Shown piece after piece: positions 10,523-18,814 of a stretch of 64,000 bases of DNA. This DNA comes from Nitrospirota bacterium. GTDB taxonomy: Bacteria; Nitrospirota; Nitrospiria; Nitrospirales; Nitrospiraceae. Both the position numbers and the translations under genes were made by a program. The notes below the pieces were generated by a model. The model ran no database searches, had not been told where the DNA came from, and saw only the letters and a program-made list of their open reading frames with translations. Within the stretch, counting starts at the first letter, position 1, and each line of letters begins with the position of its first letter. The stretch lies in contig CAVPBK010000010.1 of NCBI GenBank assembly GCA_963701855.1, positions 1-64,000 of the forward strand, in the 5' to 3' direction.

Positions 10523-12458
10523 TTAAAAAATACTCTTACTCACTTCGTTGGAGTATGTACTTTCATTGCCAGCACTATCGTACGCTGTGATGACGAAGAA
10601 ATATGTGGTCCCGTTCTGCAATCCTGTCGCAGTAAAGCTTGTCGTCGTCTTGGGTAGCGTCGAGAGGGGTGCTCCATAAGTTCCCGACCCCGTCCCTCGA
10701 TACACCTTGTATCCTGCTACATCTGATTCGGTGTTGGCATTCCAGGTGAGATTGGCCGTGCCGGCTACTGTGGCGCTGAGTGTTAACGACACAGGAATCT
10801 GACGTGGGCTATTGGTCGATCCGGAAGCCGTTATAGTGACGATGCTGTTGTAAGTTCCGGCGGCTAACCCTGTCATGTTCACGCTTGCAGTTATGGATCC
10901 GCTGTTGGTGCCGGACACAGGACTCAGGGTCAACCACGCTGCGTTGTCCGAGGCCGCCCAGGACAAGGTGCCGCCGCCGGTGTTGGAGATGCTAATGGGC
11001 TTAGCTACAGGGTTCGTACCTCCCACTGTTCCGGTGAATGTGAGGTTGGTCGGGCTGAAGTCGATCGTCGCACCAGCCGTTGTTGCCGTAATTGTTAACG
11101 TGACCGGCAGGCTTTTGGCTGGAGCCCCTGAGGCGGTCACAGTAACGATGGCGTTGTAGGTTCCGGCGGCTAACCCCGTGAGGTTCACGCTCACGGTTAC
11201 GGTCCCGCTGTTGGTACCGGACGCGGGACTGAGGGTCAGCCACGCTGTGTTGTCTGATGCTACCCAGGATAAGGTGCCGCCGCCCACATTCGAAACAGCG
11301 ATAGTTTGGGCAGAAGGATTCGTCCCTCCGACCGTTCCGGCAAAGCCGAGAGTTGTTGTGTTGAGCCTGATCGCGGGCGTGGCACTGCCGGAAGTGACAC
11401 TCATGATGATGGGCACTTGCTTGGTGATTCCACCGCCAGAGATGGTCGCAGTTCCACTGTAGGTTCCGGCGGTGAGTCCGGCGGTAGAGGCCGTGTGCGA
11501 GATCGTGGCCGATGCCCCTGGCGACCATTGTGACGTGTCGCCGGAGGTCGCGACGAGCCAGTTGATGGAATCGGCCCAGGTTACCGTAAGGGCCGTGCTC
11601 CCTGTGTTCGTCACGGTCACGCTACCGGACTTGTTTGGCGATCCCACCGTGGCGCTGTAGGCCAGCGTGGGCGGCGAGAGGCTGAAGCCGGTAGCGGACC
11701 CGGCGGTCGTGAGAGTGAGGGTGATGGGCACTTGCTTGGTGATTCCACCGCCAGAGATGGTCGCAGTTCCACTGTAGGTTCCGGCGGTGAGTCCGGCGGT
11801 AGAGGCCGTTAGTGCGAGATCGTGGCCGATGCCCCGGGCGCCATTGTGACTGTGTCGCCGGAGGTCGCGACGAGCCAGTTGATGGAATCGGCCCAGGTTA
11901 CCGTGAGGGCCGTGCTTCCTGTGTTCGTCACGGTCACGCTACCGGACTTATTTGGCGATCCCACCGTGGCGCTGTAGGCCAGCGTGGGCGGCGAGAGGCT
12001 GAAGCCGGTAGCGGACCCGGCGGTCGTGAGAGTGAGGGTGATGGGCACTTGCTTGGTGATTCCACCGCCAGAGATGGTCGCAGTTCCACTGTAGGTGCCG
12101 GCGGTGAGTCCGGCGGAAGAGGCCGTGTGCGAGATCGTGGCCGATGCCCCTGGCGAATCATTGTGACTGTGTCGCCGGAGGTCGCGACGAGCCAGTTGAT
12201 GGAATCGGCCCAGGTTACCGTGAGGGCCGTGCTTCCTGTGTTCGTCACGGTCACGCTACCGGACTTGTTTGGCGATCCCACCGTGGCGCTGTAGGCCAGC
12301 GTGGACGGCGAGAGGTTGAAACTGGTAGCGGATTGCGCGAATGCGCTGGTGACACGGAGTCCTCCATCAAGTGCCAGCAGTCCAAGTAGCGCGAAGACAA
12401 CGCTTTTTCCGACGAGCCATCGGATTACAGGAAAAAATGGAATGCAGTACGAGTTCAT
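10523..12458 (-). pseudogene. secreted BACON-like repeat + FN3 protein with frameshifts
   Basis: Signal peptide (MNSY...AFAQ), three 315-bp Ig-like repeats, two further BACON-like repeats (WLTLSP.SGT) and a C-terminal FN3 (YFFVITAYDSAGNES). Net +4 nt of indels. Confidence 0.8.
11408..12332. repeat. intragenic tandem repeat, about 3 x 315 bp
   Basis: GATGGGCACTTGCTTGGTGATTCC recurs at 11408, 11723 and 12040. Confidence 0.95.
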
Positions 12459-12541
12459 GTTGTGATTCCTCTGCTCACGTTCATAGTGAAGCTGTGCGGT
12501 GTTCCAGCTGTTGTCTTCGAATACAGTGCGCCCTGTCACCT

Positions 12542-12824: not shown

Positions 12825-13124
12825 ATGAATTCGAATCGTTCCTTCTCACAGGAAATAGATAAGGCTGTTCCGAAAATCGTTTCACAGGAGCAAGCGCCGC
12901 TCTCTGCGGCTGGTTCAATCGGTCCATGGTCGGTGTGGGGCAGCATCGCAGTGGGAGCGGTGCTCGCGGCTGTGATCGGCACGTGGCTGGTCTGGTTTTC
13001 GGTTTCCTTACAGCGAAAGTTTCAAGTAGAAGATATACAAGCCGCCTGTCAGCGTGTGATGCCTGAGACCGTGGAGCGTTGTGTGGACACAGTGATTATT
13101 CAACGCGGGGGAGCGAGGCGATGA
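12825..13124 (+). CDS. small single-TM hypothetical protein
   Basis: Hydrophobic helix; ATGA overlap with the next gene. Confidence 0.55.
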   Translation: MNSNRSFSQEIDKAVPKIVSQEQAPLSAAGSIGPWSVWGSIAVGAVLAAVIGTWLVWFSVSLQRKFQVEDIQAACQRVMPETVERCVDTVIIQRGGARR

Positions 13125-14135
13125 AGGGGTGGAGTCGACGAACATCCGCAGCAGTCCTGTGTGGGTGGCTCATGATCGTAGGCATTGCATGCGGTACTCA
13201 GGTTGCAGCGGCGCAAGAATCCATTACAGAGTCACGTCAAAAATTCGATTTGGCGATTGGAACGTGGATCAGCACAGGAAATACGCGCTGGGAGCACAAT
13301 GCGTCGTCCACAGCTGGGTTGGGGAATCCGACGTCAAAGCTTAAATATGAAGACGTTGGGACGAATGTGGTTGAACTCACCGGAAAGGCTTGGGTGACAC
13401 CGAAGTGGTTTGGCCGACTCAACGTGGGCGTCGCCGGGATCGGAGGCGGCAGACTCACGGATGACGATTATGGATCAAACGGAGGGCAGAGGCTGTTTTC
13501 GAGTACCAATAGCAACCTATCTGGTGACAACATGTGGTACCTGAATGCGGACGGCGGCTTCAGAGTACTTGAATATCCAAATCATCGGGGTTGGCTGGAG
13601 GCATTTGGAGGATTTCAGTATTGGTATACAAAATATGAAGCCACAGGAGTGGCGCAGGTGGCCTGCGACAATTCGGCTGTGCCTGGGTCGTTGGGACTTG
13701 CTTGTAATCCAGTGGGAACCATGACGAATCAAGGGCAAACAGTTATCACTAATACCACAAATTGGTACTCGATTCGTGTCGGGGCTTCCACAGAATATCG
13801 ACTGACGCGGAGATTAAGCCTAATGACAACTGCGGTTTTTCTTCCGCTGACCATCATCGATAACAAGGATGTTCATCATCTGAGATCTGATCTTCAGCAA
13901 AATCCGAGTATCTCGATGGAGGGATGGGGGGTTGGAGCCAATGCAGATGTCGGATTAAAGCTGATGCTGGTCAAGAATATATTTCTCAATGCCGGCTACC
14001 GTGTCTGGTGGAACTATGCAATTGATGGTAACGTGACGTTTCATAATGTCGAGTGCGCCATCCGATTCTTTTCCCCTTACGCAGTTTCAATCCTTCCGAC
14101 AAGGCCTCACGGCCGGTCTCAACTTTACGTTTTAG
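13121..14135 (+). pseudogene. outer-membrane beta-barrel (omptin-like) protein with a +1 frameshift near 14050
   Basis: Signal peptide and amphipathic strands. The shifted frame ends FQSFRQGLTAGLNFTF* (terminal Phe beta-signal). Confidence 0.7.
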
Positions 14136-14156
14136 TATCCGATCAGCGGGAAAAGA

Positions 14157-15221
14157 TTACCGACGGCGTCCCGACGGCAGCGTTTCGTCTTCGTATTGGG
14201 CAAAGAGCCGTTTGGCTTCCGGATGGAGGTAGCTTGGATGGCCGTGTGGAATACCGACCGTGCGGAAGAGCGGTGCGAGTTTTCCGTTCGGATGCAGGTA
14301 GCCGGCGCGAAGCGGCACGGTGCGTGTGCTGTGTCGGATCAAGTGGCAGGGAGTCGGTCTGATTGAGGTAATCCACTCGGCGATGTCGTGGGGGTTGCCG
14401 ATCGAGGCAGAAAGCAAGAGCATCCGTGCTTGGCTCGGACAGAAGATGATCGTTTCTTCCCAGACGACGCCCCGCTCCGGGTCGGCGATATATTGAGACT
14501 CATCCAAAATAACCAGACCTAACGTATCCAACCGTACGTCGATCTCACCACCACCTGCGTCGTAGAGCAGGTTCCGCAAGATTTCCGTCGTCATGATCAG
14601 CAGTGGTGCTTGTCCGTTGTCGCGCCGATCGCCGGTCAGAATGCCGACCTGGTCCGCCCCGAAAATTTTTGAAAACTCCGTGTACTTGGTGTTCGAGAGG
14701 GCCTTGAGAGGCGATGTATAGATGACGGTCCGATTCTCCGCGATTGCGCGGCGGGCCGCTTCGACTGCCACATAGGTTTTTCCGCTTCCTGTGGGAACGC
14801 TTACGACCACGTCACCTTCTCTTAGTTTGGCGATGGCGTCTTCTTGCCAGGCATCCGGGACAAAGGCCTTCGACGGCGGCACTCCCAGTCCCTCCAACCA
14901 ACTGGAGAGAGTGACACCTGGCTCATGGGACTCCGGCTCAACCGGTCTGGGCATGGTGTGCCGCTGCGGCGCCGCTGATTTCTGTTTTCGCGCGGCAGGG
15001 GCTTGAGGAGGAGGTGGTGTAGGGCGAGCCTGTTTCTCGCCAATCAATATCATCAGGTCGGACTCAAAACCTGCGCGGTTCTCTGCTGAGTGGCGCAATA
15101 AAACCTCGATCAAGCGGCGTTTGCCTGCGCGGAAATGTCGTTGAACACGCCCACGCGCCAGGCGGTGCAAGAGCGCGATCGGTTGTTGGGCCAGAAGTTG
15201 TTCGAGCTCTTCGGTGGTCAT
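14157..15221 (-). CDS. Ski2/HelY-like SF2 helicase, N-terminal (RecA1) half
   Basis: PTGSGKT, YTSPLKALSN, TTEILRN, DESQ, SAS motifs; motifs IV-VI are absent. Confidence 0.85.
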   Translation of the reverse strand: MTTEELEQLLAQQPIALLHRLARGRVQRHFRAGKRRLIEVLLRHSAENRAGFESDLMILIGEKQARPTPPPPQAPAARKQKSAAPQRHTMPRPVEPESHEPGVTLSSWLEGLGVPPSKAFVPDAWQEDAIAKLREGDVVVSVPTGSGKTYVAVEAARRAIAENRTVIYTSPLKALSNTKYTEFSKIFGADQVGILTGDRRDNGQAPLLIMTTEILRNLLYDAGGGEIDVRLDTLGLVILDESQYIADPERGVVWEETIIFCPSQARMLLLSASIGNPHDIAEWITSIRPTPCHLIRHSTRTVPLRAGYLHPNGKLAPLFRTVGIPHGHPSYLHPEAKRLFAQYEDETLPSGRRR

Positions 15222-15324
15222 CTCGATGCCGTTATCCGTGAATCGTTTATCGTGAAACGTCCAGCCGAAAAATGGTCGTACGGTGTTCTTGCAGTTAACG
15301 TACAACGTTGAACGGTTAACGTCG

Positions 15325-17184
15325 TCAAGGTAATTCCTCCAGTACGCCACGTCGTAGGGCGGCAATCGCGCGTGACGCGGTGTCTGCCAATCCTGGGTGT
15401 GTGGCCTTGAGCGTATGCAACTGTGACAGAAATTCCAAGGTTCGTGCTAATAGGCGATAGATATCCCCTTCAGCCATCGTTGTGCTCTTACAGAGACCGA
15501 TCCATGTGAGTGTGGGGTCGCCGATCCACCGTTCAGTCACTGCGGCGATGTCGGCACGTAAAAGTGGAGGATCTTCATGCGGTGAGAGCGACGCAGCCAA
15601 TTTTCGAACCTGTCCGAGCAATGAAGCCAGTCCGGAACTGACGCGAGGGAAGGCGCCGGGGCGATCGTCGTCGTGGGCGATGCTCGACATGACAGCGGCC
15701 AGCATAGCGGGATCGGCACCGCTGAAAGCATCGGCTCGGAGCAATTCTGTAATGAGCAGCGAGTGGTCGATGCGGATGAGCCTAGCCCATTCGCCGTCAT
15801 CGGTCAGATGGGCTGTTGGCGTGAGATAGCCGAACTGTTGCAGGACGTCGATTTTTTCCTGGAAACGGTGCCAGAGACTCGTCCTCAGGGCCTGGATCGA
15901 TTTGACATGCCGATGTTGTTCCTGCCGAAGTTTAGCAGCGAGAGGATAGTCTCTCTGACAGGCGGAACGTGAAGGACAGGTCGGACAGGCAAAGTCGCCC
16001 AGGGTTTGCACGATGGCGTCAGGAATCGGCTCATCGTCCTTCGGAATCAAAATGGGTAGCTCCGGCAGCCGGCCCGGCAACTCTTCCAGCTGATGGAGTA
16101 ACTCTTCCACGCTCTCCGGCGTGCACCAGGGATAGACGGGTGCGTCCACGCAGTCAAGGACACGGTCAGATACTTCGGTCACCGTGGAAGCTGGAGATTC
16201 GGTAATGCCTCCGTCGAGTCGCAGTGCCGTGATCATCGGGCTCTTCTGGCCCTTGCTGCGATATTGTCGCAGGACCACGCCTCGGCTGCGGCCGAAGCCC
16301 ACCACGCGACCGGGGGTGAGGAAATGAAAGCGTGCGGCAACTTCCGGTGGTTCATGCCTCCTGACAGGGGCACGGTGCGATTTCTGCCGGCGGACCTGGT
16401 CGAAGGTCTGCCATTCTGTGATCCAATCGGTGCACACACGCGGCCCAAACGGTTCCATCTGATTGCGCAGATCGTCCAGCTTGCGTTCCAAGACTTCGGC
16501 ACGCTGGTTGAGCTGAAATTGTGCAAAGCTTTTGGCGAGGATCGGTTGGATTTGATCAAGGGGATGGGCTTTCAAGAGATTCAAGACCATCGGATAGCTG
16601 ATGAGGAATTGGCTGTTGATTGCTTCTGGATGGCCGGTGAAGCCTTTGGTCAGCACGTTGAGATCGATATAGGGTGAGGGGGTGACGATGGCAAAGCCCA
16701 CGAGATCTTTTCCTCGGCGTCCCGCGCGGCCTGCGATCTGCTGCACTTCGCCGATGGTCAAATCCGTGAAGTCGCGCGACTTGCGAATGCTCGACTGCGT
16801 GATAATGACGGTGCGCGCAGGGAAATCGACTCCGGCGGCCAGTGTGGTTGTGGCAAAGACGGCATCGAGGCAGCCATGACGCATCAGTTCTTCAACGGCG
16901 ATTTTCCACGAGGGAAGATGGCCTGCGTGATGTGCAGCCACGCCGATGCGCTGAACAGTCGGAATGAGGGGGTGCTCGGCGATACTGGGGTATTGAGTGA
17001 TCACCTTGTCCAGCACTTCCGCGATGGCTTGCTGACGAGGTGGCGGGAGAAGGATGTGGCTATGGTCAAATGCCTGCATCGCCTCATCGCAGGCACGGCG
17101 AGACGTGAGGAACACGATGGCGGGGGTCAAGTGTTTGTCGCGAAGAGCGAGAATCAGATCAACCGGATGAATCGAGGGGGGCAT
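15325..17184 (-). CDS. Ski2/HelY-like SF2 helicase, C-terminal (RecA2 + DSHCT) half
   Basis: PAIVFLTSRRACD, HHAGHLP, ATTTLAAGVDFPA, QIAGRAGRRG, SFAQFQ, EGDIYRLL motifs; no Walker A/B. Confidence 0.85.
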   Translation of the reverse strand: MPPSIHPVDLILALRDKHLTPAIVFLTSRRACDEAMQAFDHSHILLPPPRQQAIAEVLDKVITQYPSIAEHPLIPTVQRIGVAAHHAGHLPSWKIAVEELMRHGCLDAVFATTTLAAGVDFPARTVIITQSSIRKSRDFTDLTIGEVQQIAGRAGRRGKDLVGFAIVTPSPYIDLNVLTKGFTGHPEAINSQFLISYPMVLNLLKAHPLDQIQPILAKSFAQFQLNQRAEVLERKLDDLRNQMEPFGPRVCTDWITEWQTFDQVRRQKSHRAPVRRHEPPEVAARFHFLTPGRVVGFGRSRGVVLRQYRSKGQKSPMITALRLDGGITESPASTVTEVSDRVLDCVDAPVYPWCTPESVEELLHQLEELPGRLPELPILIPKDDEPIPDAIVQTLGDFACPTCPSRSACQRDYPLAAKLRQEQHRHVKSIQALRTSLWHRFQEKIDVLQQFGYLTPTAHLTDDGEWARLIRIDHSLLITELLRADAFSGADPAMLAAVMSSIAHDDDRPGAFPRVSSGLASLLGQVRKLAASLSPHEDPPLLRADIAAVTERWIGDPTLTWIGLCKSTTMAEGDIYRLLARTLEFLSQLHTLKATHPGLADTASRAIAALRRGVLEELP

Positions 17185-18397
17185 GCAGTTTCATTCCCTT
17201 TGCAATCACAACCAAGCCGGACTCAGTGACGGTAAATCGTTGGGCGTCGGCCTCTCGGTCATATCCGATTTCCGAGTTGGGCGGAATGATGACATCCTTG
17301 TCGATGATGGCCCGTCTGATCCGGCTGTGTGCGCCGATAACGACATTTTCCATGATGATCGATTCACGCACGTCCGCATTGTCTTGCACACGGACGTTCG
17401 GCGACAGCACTGAGTTTTGTACCCGGCCACCGGAGAAGATGCAGCCGCCGCAGACGATGGAATCCAGGGCCACGCCCATCCTGCCGCCCTGATAGTCTTG
17501 CGCGAAGACGAATTTGGCCGGTGGAAATTGCCCTTGATAGGTTCGAATCGGCCAGTGCGGGTCGTAGAGATTGAAGAGGGGATCCACCGCGACGAGGTCC
17601 AGGTTCGCTTCCCAGTACGCGTCCAATGTTCCGATGTCCCGCCAATACTTCACATCTTTTTTATTCGCGTCGACAAATTTGTAGGCGCAGACACGCCGAT
17701 CGCGAAACATTCGCGGAATGATGTTTTTCCCGAAGTCGTGACTCCCGCCATCCTGAGCGTCGGCAGTCAAGTACTCCCGGAGGACTTTGGTGCGAAAGAG
17801 GTAGATGCCCATTGAAGCAAAGGCATGGGTCGGGTCGTTGGGGATCGACGGCGGCTGCGCCGGCTTTTCTTCAAATTTTGTAATCCGGAAGTCCTCATCC
17901 ACGCCGATCACGCCGAATCGATGGGCCTCTTCAATCGGAATATCGATCGCGCCCACCACGGCATCGGCGTTTTTGGCGATCAGCCAATTGAGCATTTCCA
18001 TATAGTTCATCTTGTAGATATGGTCGCCGGCCAGGATGAGCACATAGTCCGGCTGATCGCTGTCGAGCAGAAACAGGTTTTGATAGACCGCGTCGGCGGT
18101 GCCTTGGTACCATTCTTCACTGATCCGCTGTTGGGGTGGCATCGAGGCGATGTACTCGCCGAGTTCGGCGTTCAGGATGTTCCAACCTGTGCGGATGTGA
18201 CGGTCGAGCGAATGGGATTTGTACTGGATGAGGACTGCGACTTTTCGAAGCCCTGAGTTGAGACAATTGCTGAGCGTAAAATCGATAATGCGATATTTCC
18301 CGCCGAAGGGAACCGCGGGCTTGGCCCGATGTTCGGTGAGGGGATAGAGACGCTCGCCCTTCCCGCCAGCTAGCACCATGGTGAATATGTTCTGCAT
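17159..18397 (-). CDS. glgC: glucose-1-phosphate adenylyltransferase
   Basis: LAGGKGERLYPLTEHRAKPAVPFGG, GTADAV, WRDIGT. Confidence 0.95.
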   Translation of the reverse strand: MQNIFTMVLAGGKGERLYPLTEHRAKPAVPFGGKYRIIDFTLSNCLNSGLRKVAVLIQYKSHSLDRHIRTGWNILNAELGEYIASMPPQQRISEEWYQGTADAVYQNLFLLDSDQPDYVLILAGDHIYKMNYMEMLNWLIAKNADAVVGAIDIPIEEAHRFGVIGVDEDFRITKFEEKPAQPPSIPNDPTHAFASMGIYLFRTKVLREYLTADAQDGGSHDFGKNIIPRMFRDRRVCAYKFVDANKKDVKYWRDIGTLDAYWEANLDLVAVDPLFNLYDPHWPIRTYQGQFPPAKFVFAQDYQGGRMGVALDSIVCGGCIFSGGRVQNSVLSPNVRVQDNADVRESIIMENVVIGAHSRIRRAIIDKDVIIPPNSEIGYDREADAQRFTVTESGLVVIAKGMKLHAPLDSSG

Positions 18398-18526
18398 TGA
18401 GGCGAATTGTAACAGGACGCTGAGAAAATAGAAAGAAAGCAGAGTCGTTGACATCGCGAGAATCTGAGATGATACTACGCTGTAGAGTCGAAGAAAGCCG
18501 GTGAGGATTCGAGCAAAGGAGTGAGC

Positions 18527-18814
18527 ATGAAGCGGGATGTACTGGTCACGTCGCTGGTGAAACAGAAGGCGGCTCAGAAGCCGGTCGTGGATCCTAGTGC
18601 CGATGCGCTCAGGCGGGTCGAACATCTTGAAAGCCAAATGGCAAAGTTGTCCGAATTGGTCCGCGAGCATGCGGAGGATGTCGATCGGTTGGTGCGCATC
18701 GTGGCCGAAGATCGCGATGCCATCCGGCGACAGCTATTGCGCAAACATCACGAGCAAGTTCGGGTCCGCAAACATCTTCGCGACTCCAATTCTAAGGTAG
18801 GACTCGACTTCTAA
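18527..18814 (+). CDS. coiled-coil hypothetical protein
   Basis: AAGGAG RBS; helical, charged ORF. Confidence 0.6.
   Translation: MKRDVLVTSLVKQKAAQKPVVDPSADALRRVEHLESQMAKLSELVREHAEDVDRLVRIVAEDRDAIRRQLLRKHHEQVRVRKHLRDSNSKVGLDF

Follow-up and report, generated by a model that had tools for sequence, protein, structure and literature searches.

Nitrospira and its relatives carry an order-wide two-gene helicase in which the gene for the C-terminal half (C-half) stands before the gene for the N-terminal half (N-half). The pair is most likely a working SF2 helicase of the Mtr4/Ski2/HelY family whose gene was fissioned in the RecA1-RecA2 linker, giving two subunits that would assemble into the active enzyme. 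In the window, a stretch of 64,000 nucleotides of the Nitrospirota contig CAVPBK010000010.1, glgC, the C-half gene and the N-half gene are consecutive on the minus strand, and both helicase open reading frames are intact (15325-17184 and 14157-15365). A first-pass annotation of this DNA had proposed a helicase split over two genes in swapped order. Our analysis bears this out: neither frame is broken, the products correspond to complementary parts of Mtr4, and relatives keep the arrangement.

The glucose-1-phosphate adenylyltransferase-type gene glgC (17159..18670, minus strand; Pfam NTP_transferase, E 3.1e-62, and Hexapep_GlmU, E 1.4e-38) lies directly upstream of the C-half gene, and its last 26 nt overlap the C-half start as originally described, with the C-half ATG at 17184 and the glgC stop at 17159-17161. 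The listed start of the glgC frame is probably too early, the conserved protein beginning near MQNIFTM. The N-half gene was first read from a TTG at 15365; comparison with orthologous sequences indicates that it most likely begins at ATG 15221 instead, which yields 354 aa (14157..15221, minus strand). The 48 codons upstream of this ATG hold stops or mismatches in relatives, the ATG codon is the start of 47 distinct orthologous N-termini, and most of the best 120 clusters listed for the N-half measure 349-358 aa, about a dozen others falling outside this range (334 to 392 aa). Given this start, the two genes do not overlap and are 103 nt apart. The spacer (15222..15324, minus strand) contains two GTTAAC palindromes, no terminator-like or promoter-like site was seen on its minus strand, and an Rfam search of the spacer region gave no match. 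Across 53 related loci the spacer length varies between -4 and 233 nt (median 91), six of them having a 4-nt overlap, and wherever the C-then-N order occurs in f1-f3, three families of the Nitrospira order, the two genes are probably one operon. Two RNA libraries from a single study yielded contigs that fill 30 of 30 bins of both genes; no contig crosses the spacer. As a sign of expression this coverage is a weak hint, since the contigs may include DNA. The neighbours of the pair are glgC, an outer-membrane-type frame and a HEAT-repeat frame, and no exosome partner genes were seen nearby.

The C-half gene (15325..17184, minus strand) encodes 619 aa: most of RecA2, including motifs IV, V and VI, then a winged-helix region, a probable arch carrying a beta-barrel and, at the end, the helical bundle/DSHCT. 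The description of the upstream gene as motifs IV-VI, a Cys-rich insertion and a DSHCT end is thus confirmed by Pfam, by alignments and by four invariant Cys residues. Pfam reports Helicase_C (E 7.2e-06) and DSHCT (PF08148, 15340..15810, minus strand; E 7.6e-25, 88.1 bits against a cut-off of 22.7), the latter being the sole DSHCT match in the whole genome. Motif IV lies in AIVFLTSRR (17095..17121, minus strand; P21-R30 invariant in 10/10 orthologues) and motif V in ATTTLAAGVDFPART (16810..16854, minus strand; A111-T125 invariant in 10/10 aligned orthologues). Residues 145-169 belong to the predicted interface, and in the model the conserved motif VI, QIAGRAGRRG (16711..16740, minus strand), would supply the arginine fingers for an ATP site formed with the N-half. 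Motif VI is followed by the beta-strand GFAIVT (aa 163-168; 16681..16698, minus strand), which is predicted to pair with N-half strand 302-309. Modelled alone, the C-half reaches a mean pLDDT of 67.8, with values below 50 across aa 129-193. Long helices at 220-246 and 406-434 flank five strands at 293-342 in the modelled arch, and the alignment with Mtr4 extends into FLTPGRVVG of this region; the Pfam MTR4-like_stalk model scores 16.8 bits, below its cut-off of 24.2.

The four Cys of the former "Cys-rich insertion" are C251 (16432..16434, minus strand) and C400, C403 and C409 within CPTCPSRSAC (15958..15987, minus strand), a CxxCx5C motif at the return arm of the predicted arch, and all four are invariant in 10/10 aligned orthologues. 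The pattern C…CxxCx5C suggests a candidate metal site, [4Fe-4S] or Zn, with Zn equally simple. Four conserved Cys with CxxCx5C spacing are the signature of iron-sulfur helicases and nucleases, and at the level of sequence the C-half has it, which would make a cluster a candidate; we take the spacing to resemble that of AddB/Dna2/Cas4-type clusters (C-Xn-C-X2-C-X5-C). The CxxCx5C motif occurs in 20 of 66 full-length representative matches, in all 34 members of a group of 1123-1146 aa, and in one of 86 mostly eukaryotic Ski2-type proteins.

The N-half comprises an N-terminal extension, RecA1 with motifs Q, I, Ia, Ib, II and III, the strand RTVPLRAGYL and a conserved basic tail, so that the content first ascribed to the downstream gene, motifs I-III plus an extra N-terminal region, stands while its start moved. 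Pfam finds DEAD (E 4.7e-22, 78.9 bits). F120/Q126, PTGSGKT, TSPLKALSN, TTEILRN, DESQ and SAS are invariant or nearly so in 12/12 N-half orthologues; motif I, PTGSGKT (14775..14795, minus strand), is invariant in all 12, and motif III reads SAS (14403..14411, minus strand) where fused relatives have SAT. As initially reported, motif II translates as DESQ (14493..14504, minus strand), with Gln replacing the usual His. It is DESQ in families f1-f3, DEAQ in the fourth family, f4, and DEAH in fused relatives. The pair thus departs from the DExH class at the fourth place of the motif; we treat the Gln as a lineage-specific substitution within a clear homologue, and file the pair as a variant rather than a typical member. 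Gln in motif II is tolerated in Suv3, a DExQ-box helicase, and the Pfam model DEXQc_Suv3 does match the N-half (34.8 bits, cut-off 27); Suv3 differs in that the DEAD model scores higher on the N-half, the C-terminal part of the pair is DSHCT-type, and the best solved relatives are Mtr4/Ski2. The substitution could mean altered coupling.

The break had been placed between the two RecA domains. It does fall in the linker region, but it is not clean, since the N-half retains a RecA2 strand. This strand, RTVPLRAGYLHP (aa 300-311; 14289..14324, minus strand), aligns to RPTPLQH-YLFP of Mtr4 and is predicted to complete the RecA2 sheet of the C-half. The conserved C-terminal tail that follows (…LHPEAKRLFAQYEDETLPSGRRR, with the stop codon; 14157..14288, minus strand) is the counterpart of the inter-domain linker in fused relatives, and its residues 324-348 lie within the predicted interface. 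At the other end, aa 1-65 (15027..15221, minus strand) model as a four-helix unit (AlphaFold2 on 22 sequences, pLDDT 83.8), joined to RecA1 by a Pro-rich, poorly conserved linker of aa 66-112 (14886..15026, minus strand). Over aa 1-112, 10 of 11 in-genus comparisons give a dN/dS of 0.06-0.18; the remaining one, a partial comparison, gives 0.31. The best Foldseek matches of the extension, the Rho N-domain, FAN1 and the PIAS1 SAP domain, are not significant (E 2.5-9.2), and its atlas feature scores of 0.75-0.76 serve as leads only; the modelled fold is possibly SAP/HeH (Rho-N-like). The suggestion that this extra domain is a docking module is not supported. It is absent from the N-half of f4 (273-274 aa) and from fused relatives, its best matches, non-significant as they are, are Rho N-terminal and SAP domains, and no residue below 109 appears in the confident interface, although a residue left unlisted there is no evidence against contact.

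Mtr4/Dob1 is the best solved relative of both halves. Residues 15-296 and 442-592 of the C-half match Mtr4 327-606 and 808-966 (E 1.7e-34), and residues 119-311 of the N-half match Mtr4 72-257 (E 3.1e-40); because these parts of Mtr4 adjoin, the two genes are complementary parts of one helicase, and only C-half and N-half together reach the full motif set. Foldseek retrieves Mtr4, FRH and Ski2 with the C-half model at E 1.7e-22 and weaker. The same fused proteins rank highest for both halves (Spearman 0.79 over 186 fused proteins), and by these sequence comparisons the halves are of common ancestry. The pair has the winged helix, the helical bundle (DSHCT) and the RecA1/RecA2 motifs of Ski2-like helicases. 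It does not have both RecA domains on one polypeptide, these being encoded by two genes in 39 of 41 related genomes.

Conservation of the split and of its order, put forward at the outset as a check, is extensive. Of the 41 related genomes, 40 carry the C-half and 39 an N-half orthologue; complete C-half matches are stand-alone frames of 618-709 aa. One exception (83% complete) is without both halves, and another (71% complete) holds a 182-aa C-half piece and no N-half. Among the 34 genomes of families f1-f3 holding both, 33 have them adjacent, C then N, and the last is broken by contig ends; in f4 the genes are unlinked in 5/5 genomes. The larger order glgC - C-half - N-half was found in 12/12 loci checked in the window's own family and in 0/7 in the other three families. 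Helicase motifs are all invariant across the order in orthologue alignments of both halves, and none of 42 C-half matches has internal stops. Compared with the window, 11 in-genus loci give a dN/dS of 0.025-0.042 (C-half) and 0.038-0.092 (N-half), and three more distant loci 0.095-0.164 and 0.102-0.242, respectively. Both genes are under strong purifying selection. The genome of the window has no fused copy (one DSHCT match, one C-half match), and among 186 fused relatives none comes from the Nitrospira-like clade. Joint retention, purifying selection and divided catalytic residues are what characterizes a naturally split enzyme, and the pair combines all three.

We predicted the complex of C-half and N-half in three runs, which returned ipSAE values of 0.83, 0.83 and 0.82 against 0.00 for the best of three controls, a pass possibly owed to likeness to one chain. 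The runs share at least 84% of contacts, with a partner pLDDT of at least 77; the mark of this test is reached by 116 of 157 solved complexes and by 2 of 215 mismatched pairs. Halves of split genes tend to pass through their likeness to solved single-chain structures, so the pass shows that the halves still resemble one helicase and does not by itself show binding. The predicted interface includes N-half motifs I, Ia, Ib, II and III and C-half motifs V and VI. In the model, N-half strand RTVPLRAGYL enters the RecA2 sheet of the C-half, its residues 302-309 beside strand 163-168, and the lowest-error contacts are at this pairing (expected error 0.5-0.8 A). The heterodimer in trans that the first-pass annotation envisaged accordingly has computational backing from conservation, co-occurrence, selection, divided motifs, shared fused relatives and complex prediction.

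In the enzyme we propose, subunit N (354 aa) would contribute RecA1 with ATP-binding motifs Q, I, II (DESQ) and III, the first RecA2 strand and the basic tail, and subunit C (619 aa) would add the remainder of RecA2, with motifs IV-VI and the arginine fingers, as well as the winged helix, the predicted arch/beta-barrel with its four Cys, and the DSHCT bundle. Neither the ATPase site nor the RNA channel would exist outside the heterodimer, which is presumably held together by strand complementation in the RecA2 sheet and also by the usual RecA1 contacts with the winged-helix and bundle domains.

The swapped order could raise the suspicion of a misassembly, or of a rearranged helicase near loss, and the 71%-complete genome with its C-half piece and no N-half would fit such decay. 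This reading has next to no probability and is refuted: dozens of independent assemblies share the arrangement, as do 47 of 80 metagenome loci, and since several of the assemblies are closed single contigs, misassembly is excluded; the in-genus dN/dS and the lack of internal stops speak against decay. Joining of the products into one chain by a split intein, RNA trans-splicing or ribosomal bypass is very improbable, even though protein trans-splicing is indifferent to gene order and so compatible with the swap; there is no segment of intein size, the halves end and begin at adjoining linker positions with nothing extra, Pfam shows helicase domains only, and Rfam is silent in the region. The genes might instead have separate jobs, for example the C-half as an RNA-binding adaptor and the N-half as a stand-alone P-loop ATPase. 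The unlinked genes of f4 are compatible with this, as are at least four metagenome loci of other lineages that show no N-half although each side has over 3 kb of clear flank, and the extra domain that the N-half acquired in f1-f3. We nevertheless consider separate jobs unlikely. Motifs IV-VI, arginine fingers included, are invariant in the C-half and motifs I-III in the N-half, a pattern to be expected only under retention of a composite ATP site; the halves co-occur or are jointly missing throughout the 41 genomes, the one C-half piece apart; and the predicted interface is the canonical one.

How the order came to be swapped is a separate matter. Fission followed by relocation of one gene is the origin we lean towards. 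The classical path to a circular permutation, in which a fused gene is duplicated in tandem and its outer halves are then lost (N1-C1-N2-C2 -> C1-N2), would yield C then N directly, adjacent and co-oriented as in f1-f3, and retains an appreciable though lesser chance. Against it, tblastn of both halves on the window gave chance rows only (E 0.9 or more) and thus no relics beside the pair, none of the 186 fused relatives is permuted, and unswapped fission at the same linker is common in other lineages. In addition, f4, with its unlinked genes, is sister to f1-f3 (support 82/86), which leaves the ancestral state either way.

A split at this linker is not peculiar to Nitrospira. With an acidobacterial query on species genomes, 18 of 21 loci were split in normal order at the same linker and three were fused; 20 of the 21 bear the name Acidobacteriota, Blastocatellia or Pyrinomonadaceae, and the remaining one, a split locus, is labelled "uncultured bacterium". 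The split Pyrinomonadaceae/Blastocatellia genes share the fission position and have a C-half of 618-623 aa, but their order is N then C, and the C-half match starts 40-735 nt after the N-half stop. One metagenome locus of this N-then-C type has 865 nt between the two BLAST matches, and other acidobacterial-type loci have no N-half within about 4 kb. The acidobacterial genes are without the Cys motif (P0253), have only 33% identity to the Nitrospira C-half and form a separate clade; the sister genus Pyrinomonas has a fused gene. Stand-alone C-half genes occur in at least four clades of the tree, and the swapped order was found only in Nitrospira-like loci. Fission at the same linker thus recurs in other lineages and is tolerated there. 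The split does not require the swapped order, real as that order is: elsewhere the same fission occurs in normal order or unlinked.

Mtr4 (Dob1), FRH and Ski2 have the same domain order, RecA1, RecA2, winged helix, arch with beta-barrel (a predicted one in the pair) and helical bundle/DSHCT, but each is a single chain of about 1000 aa in which motif II is DExH and the four-Cys site is missing, whereas the Nitrospira pair is two chains with DESQ. Among full-length relatives the nearest are fused bacterial HelY-type proteins of about 890-930 aa, whose identity is 27-33% with the C-half and 42-50% with the N-half core. They share C…CxxCx5C, but each is a single gene, motifs II and III read DEAH and SAT, and the SAP-like N-extension is missing. 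The closer long relatives also include a red-algal "DExH15 chloroplastic" protein of the plastid DExH15/ISE2 type, a single chain of more than 1200 aa that matches 35% of the C-half at 43% identity (E 8.4e-51). PADLOC matches to Hachiman HamB and other defence helicases reach at most 51 bits, cover the helicase core only and come with no HamA partner among the neighbours, and we rejected this assignment. A natural SF2 helicase on two genes is also described for the Nanoarchaeota "large helicase-related protein" Lhr (NEQ003/NEQ409 and Nst 172/239; PMC3655853). Split Lhr differs in belonging to another SF2 family, in occurring in archaeal symbionts with reduced genomes, and in having unlinked genes with split sites unlike between the two species. 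A full-text search, largely of literature outside subscription journals, returned no report of the Nitrospira split or of the Cys site.

M. smegmatis HelY reportedly unwinds RNA in the 3'-to-5' direction. Streptomyces HelY increases among ribosome-associated proteins under antibiotic stress (PMC7157823). By homology, the two-gene enzyme would most likely be a 3'-to-5' RNA helicase of RNA decay or of ribosome-associated quality control. Where the genes are unlinked, as in f4 and some metagenome loci, the two could be regulated independently or serve distinct roles. A far-reaching version, in which fission is a recurrent selected design rather than a neutral accident and the RecA1 subunit is a "key" that switches the motor on, jointly with order-aided strand capture and [4Fe-4S] sensing, is speculative and rather improbable. 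If it were true, the ATP site would exist only in the heterodimer, so that activity could be set by subunit ratio or timing; the unlinked genes of f4 and several other lineages would be regulated separately; with adjacent genes in C-then-N order, a completed C subunit could capture the strand of the nascent N subunit that is synthesized last; and a [4Fe-4S] cluster on the four Cys of the arch would add redox or iron sensing to an RNA-surveillance helicase.

SF2 helicases work as two RecA domains, usually parts of one chain, close and reopen the cleft that separates them. A natural, order-wide and strongly conserved split therefore offers a test system for the role of the linker in coupling ATP hydrolysis to translocation, and raises how the cleft holds without it, for which a donated beta-strand is predicted here, and whether subunit supply can regulate a helicase. 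The shared C…CxxCx5C points to a putative, unreported metal site in the bacterial Ski2 branch. Nitrospira is a key nitrifier group, and its halves currently go by "DEAD/DEAH box helicase", "helicase-related protein" or "hypothetical", so surveys for full-length HelY/Ski2 would score Nitrospira and some Acidobacteriota as without the enzyme; the JGI name of many Nitrospira C-halves is "ATP-dependent RNA helicase HelY".

The window encodes its Ski2/HelY-type helicase in two minus-strand genes whose order is swapped, a layout that the first-pass annotation had read correctly: by Pfam and structure matches, the first-read gene (C-half, 619 aa, 15325-17184 (-)) carries motifs IV-VI and the C-terminal domains (Helicase_C, E 7.2e-06; DSHCT, E 7.6e-25), and the second (N-half, from ATG 15221 (-)) carries motifs Q-III on a DEAD-type RecA1 domain (E 4.7e-22). 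Both are co-oriented with glgC (17159-18670 (-); Pfam NTP_transferase, E 3.1e-62), whose end overlaps the start of the C-half by 26 nt, and motif II reads DESQ, as had been noted in both cases. Mtr4/Dob1 is the top solved-structure match of both genes, which cover adjoining parts of it: N-half aa 119-311 align with Mtr4 72-257 (E 3.1e-40), and C-half aa 15-296 and 442-592 with Mtr4 327-606 and 808-966 (E 1.7e-34). When a C-half model with a mean pLDDT of 67.8 is searched with Foldseek, Mtr4, FRH and Ski2 come out as the top folds (E 1.7e-22 and weaker). The break had been placed between the two RecA domains, which is roughly right but not exact, as the N-half retains RTVPLRAGYL, a strand at aa 300-311, together with a conserved tail; fused relatives, where one gene encodes both halves, carry this strand and tail directly before the segment that opens the C-half. 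For the N-half, ATG 15221 (354 aa) is the most likely start, in place of TTG 15365. The 48 codons ahead of this ATG contain stops or have no match in relatives, 47 distinct orthologous N-termini start at its codon, and N-half length in the best 120 clusters listed is mostly 349-358 aa, with a dozen or so outliers of 334-392 aa. With this start, a 103-nt spacer separates the halves.

The split arrangement is real, old and under selection. Among 41 genomes of the genus and order, several of them closed, 40 contain the C-half in a stand-alone frame uninterrupted by stops, and 39 contain an N-half orthologue. Both halves are missing from one genome (83% complete), and another (G021, 71% complete) has a C-half piece of 182 aa only (C15:226283-226828, the first 182 residues) and no N-half; it may represent a lineage losing the system or an effect of assembly completeness. 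We compared four families of the order, f1-f4, the window's own family belonging to the f1-f3 group. The split and the swapped order are kept in f1-f3, where the C-half is followed by an adjacent N-half in 33 of the 34 genomes with both genes, the remaining one being cut by contig ends. In f4 the halves are unlinked in all five genomes, separated by 13.6 kb or placed on separate contigs, and the N-half is only 273-274 aa long. A draw across the phylum recovered the gene in 26 of 151 genomes, all 26 in f1 or f2, and at E 1e-20 in none of the 125 genomes from 20 other families. Selection acts on both genes: against the window, 11 in-genus loci give dN/dS values within 0.025-0.092 (C-half 0.025-0.042, N-half 0.038-0.092), and three distant loci give 0.095-0.164 and 0.102-0.242, respectively. 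Within the N-half, the in-genus values are 0.014-0.073 for the core and 0.06-0.18 for the first 112 residues, with one partial comparison at 0.31. One Nitrospira record names the gene 'putative Helicase (C-terminal)', so the truncation had been noticed by annotators. Two C-half proteins 84-85% identical to the window's (P0017 and P0033) are named as the cyanobacterium Petrachloros mirabilis; so close a match to Nitrospira suggests that they come from contaminant contigs.

Several other accounts of two adjacent half-genes were weighed. A local misassembly or a pseudogene would also yield a broken helicase, but both are excluded by the conservation across 41 genomes and by the dN/dS values. An intein or a recoding event would join the halves into one product; neither end of the junction carries an extra segment, and there is no Rfam match. 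A circularly permuted one-chain form, which would share the C-then-N order, occurs in none of 186 fused proteins, and the window retains no relics of a tandem duplication. The window's genome contains a single DSHCT domain, and no fused copy of the helicase is present in it. The halves instead appear to derive from one ancestral gene. In a library-wide HMMER search, the matches of the C-half beyond its own clade are ordinary fused proteins, ~890-930 aa long and ~27-33% identical, and the two halves rank the 186 fused proteins alike (Spearman 0.79). Motifs II and III read DEAH and SAT in the fused relatives and DES/AQ and SAS in the Nitrospira clade.

The motifs for a composite ATP site are all invariant and are divided between the two genes. 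Complex prediction of the pair gave ipSAE values of 0.83, 0.83 and 0.82, against 0.00 for the best of three controls; of 157 solved complexes, 116 reach the ipSAE mark, as do 2 of 215 mismatched pairs. The runs have at least 84% of contacts in common, with partner pLDDT of at least 77. The predicted interface is canonical, with motifs I-III opposite motifs V-VI and RecA1 against the winged helix and bundle, and its tightest contacts, between N-half 302-309 and C-half 163-168, suggest that the RecA2 sheet takes an edge strand from the N subunit. The heterodimer proposed at first pass thus passes its controls in the model, but the pass does not extend to evidence for binding: by the prediction tool's own warning, when one-chain structures of a family are solved, its split halves can succeed in such a test through likeness to them, so what the predicted complex shows is preserved complementarity. 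Modelled alone, the C-half has low confidence at aa 129-193, which fits an incomplete RecA2; as the complex was modelled with another program, this is not counted as evidence. All evidence for a two-subunit motor is computational.

The split is not unique to Nitrospira, whereas the swapped order is confined to the Nitrospira lineage. Using P0253, a stand-alone C-half of 621 aa with 33% identity, as a query retrieved 26 loci in species genomes, 21 of which contain both halves or a fused gene. Twenty of these 21 records are assigned to Acidobacteriota, Blastocatellia, Pyrinomonadaceae or the one Desulfobacteraceae, and the split locus L034 is an 'uncultured bacterium' record. Eighteen of the 21 (within loci L021-L045) are split at the same linker in the normal order, N then C, with 40-735 nt between the N-half stop and the start of the C-half match; the other three are fused (two Pyrinomonas, one Desulfobacteraceae), and the cultured Pyrinomonas methylaliphatogenes K22 has a fused gene of 904 aa. 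A metagenome scan yielded 80 loci: 47 have the order C then N, all with 58.9% or more identity to the C-half of the window, three are fused, one is N then C (865 nt between the two BLAST matches), and 29, many of them cut by contig ends, lack an N-half within the locus. For P0250, the closest stand-alone C-half from outside Nitrospira, the first metagenome scan found no locus; a related locus, L047, came from the alignment-based scan and shows no N-half over the 3.1 kb upstream and 4 kb downstream. L047, L097, L125 and L126 each hold a complete C-half gene that stands alone and belongs to another lineage, some of them short-arched (431-460 aa), with at least 3.1 kb clear of any N-half on both sides; one f4-like metagenome locus has ~4 kb clear. 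A tree built from 32 C-parts distributes the stand-alone C-halves over at least four well-supported clades that interleave with fused forms, the links between the clades lacking resolution. Fission at this linker has thus occurred several times, or been reversed. A small tree did not resolve the base of the Nitrospira clade; the larger one places f4 as sister to f1-f3 with support of only 82/86, so the genes of the Nitrospira ancestor may have been adjacent or unlinked.

Two features set on this core deserve separate description. In the C-half, C251, C400, C403 and C409 are invariant (16432-16434 (-) and 15958-15987 (-), the latter encoding CPTCPSRSAC), and the model places all four at the base of the arch, where it leaves and re-enters the core. 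CxxCx5C occurs in 20 of 66 full-length representative matches, among them most of the closest ones, which are fused and bacterial, in 34/34 of a group of 1123-1146 aa, and in 1 of 86 mostly eukaryotic Ski2/Mtr4-type matches. The residues may bind a [4Fe-4S] cluster or, equally possibly, Zn; their spacing presumably resembles the [4Fe-4S] sites of AddB/Dna2/Cas4-type nucleases. Our literature search found no paper on a Cys or Fe-S site in the Ski2/HelY family. The N-half opens with a four-helix unit that is modelled with confidence (first 65 residues, pLDDT 83.8), and a Pro-rich linker comes after it. This extension had been taken for a docking module between the halves, a role that the analysis does not support: it is limited to f1-f3, absent from f4 and from fused relatives, and outside the confident interface of the complex model. 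Its nearest Foldseek folds, the Rho N-terminal domain and the SAP domains of FAN1 and PIAS1, are not significant (E 2.5-9.2); Atlas scores of 0.75-0.81, with SAP/Rho_N at 0.75-0.76, are leads only, and the Pfam matches, none better than E 0.15, are not meaningful. It is possibly a nucleic-acid or partner-binding add-on.

By homology, the pair is a Ski2-type RNA helicase, and many C-halves are labelled HelY by JGI. In Streptomyces, translation stress reportedly induces HelY along with ribosome-associated proteins, and deleting it has only a marginal effect (PMC7157823). A role in defence was rejected, as defence models match weakly and only over the helicase core. Nanoarchaeota Lhr genes are a precedent for split SF2 helicases (PMC3655853); our literature search found no paper on a split Ski2/HelY helicase or on that of Nitrospira. 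The interest of the system lies in what would be a conserved two-subunit Ski2-type motor in free-living bacteria, in an apparent fission recurring at one site, and in a swapped gene order restricted to the Nitrospira lineage.

Across 53 related loci the spacer ranges from -4 to 233 nt (median 91), with a 4-nt overlap in six. The window's spacer (15222-15324 (-)) contains two GTTAAC palindromes inside 28 nt; on the minus strand it has no promoter-like or terminator-like site, and the counts of such sites do not exceed those in shuffles (3, shuffle mean 2.1; 5, shuffle mean 4.4). Rfam returned no match in the region. RNA-library contigs from one study cover both genes in 30/30 bins (run X1 in only 13/30), but the libraries may contain DNA and no contig in any run bridges the spacer, so they show neither transcription nor co-transcription. 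Upstream of the pair, glgC is present in 12/12 loci of the window's own family and in 0/7 elsewhere; conserved partner genes were rejected, as the neighbourhood outside the pair differs between families, and its inspection revealed no linked exosome, PNPase or nuclease gene.

Downstream, a convergent ORF (13079-14362 (+)) overlaps the N-half 3' end by ~200 nt as listed and probably has an earlier true end; its match to the Protochlamydia outer-membrane protein family is sub-threshold (E 0.00029, 20.7 bits against a cut-off of 22.4). The neighbouring ORFs 10523-11731 (-) and 11934-12539 (-) encode Thr/Ser/Gly-rich repeat proteins that look like surface or adhesin-type proteins. They have a near-identical stretch of ~48 aa in common (LSPSTLAYSATVGSPNKSGSVTVTNTGSTALTVTWADSINWLVATSGDT in the second; PP replaces PS at residues 3-4 in the first), and the first contains an internal repeat of a ~95-aa module.
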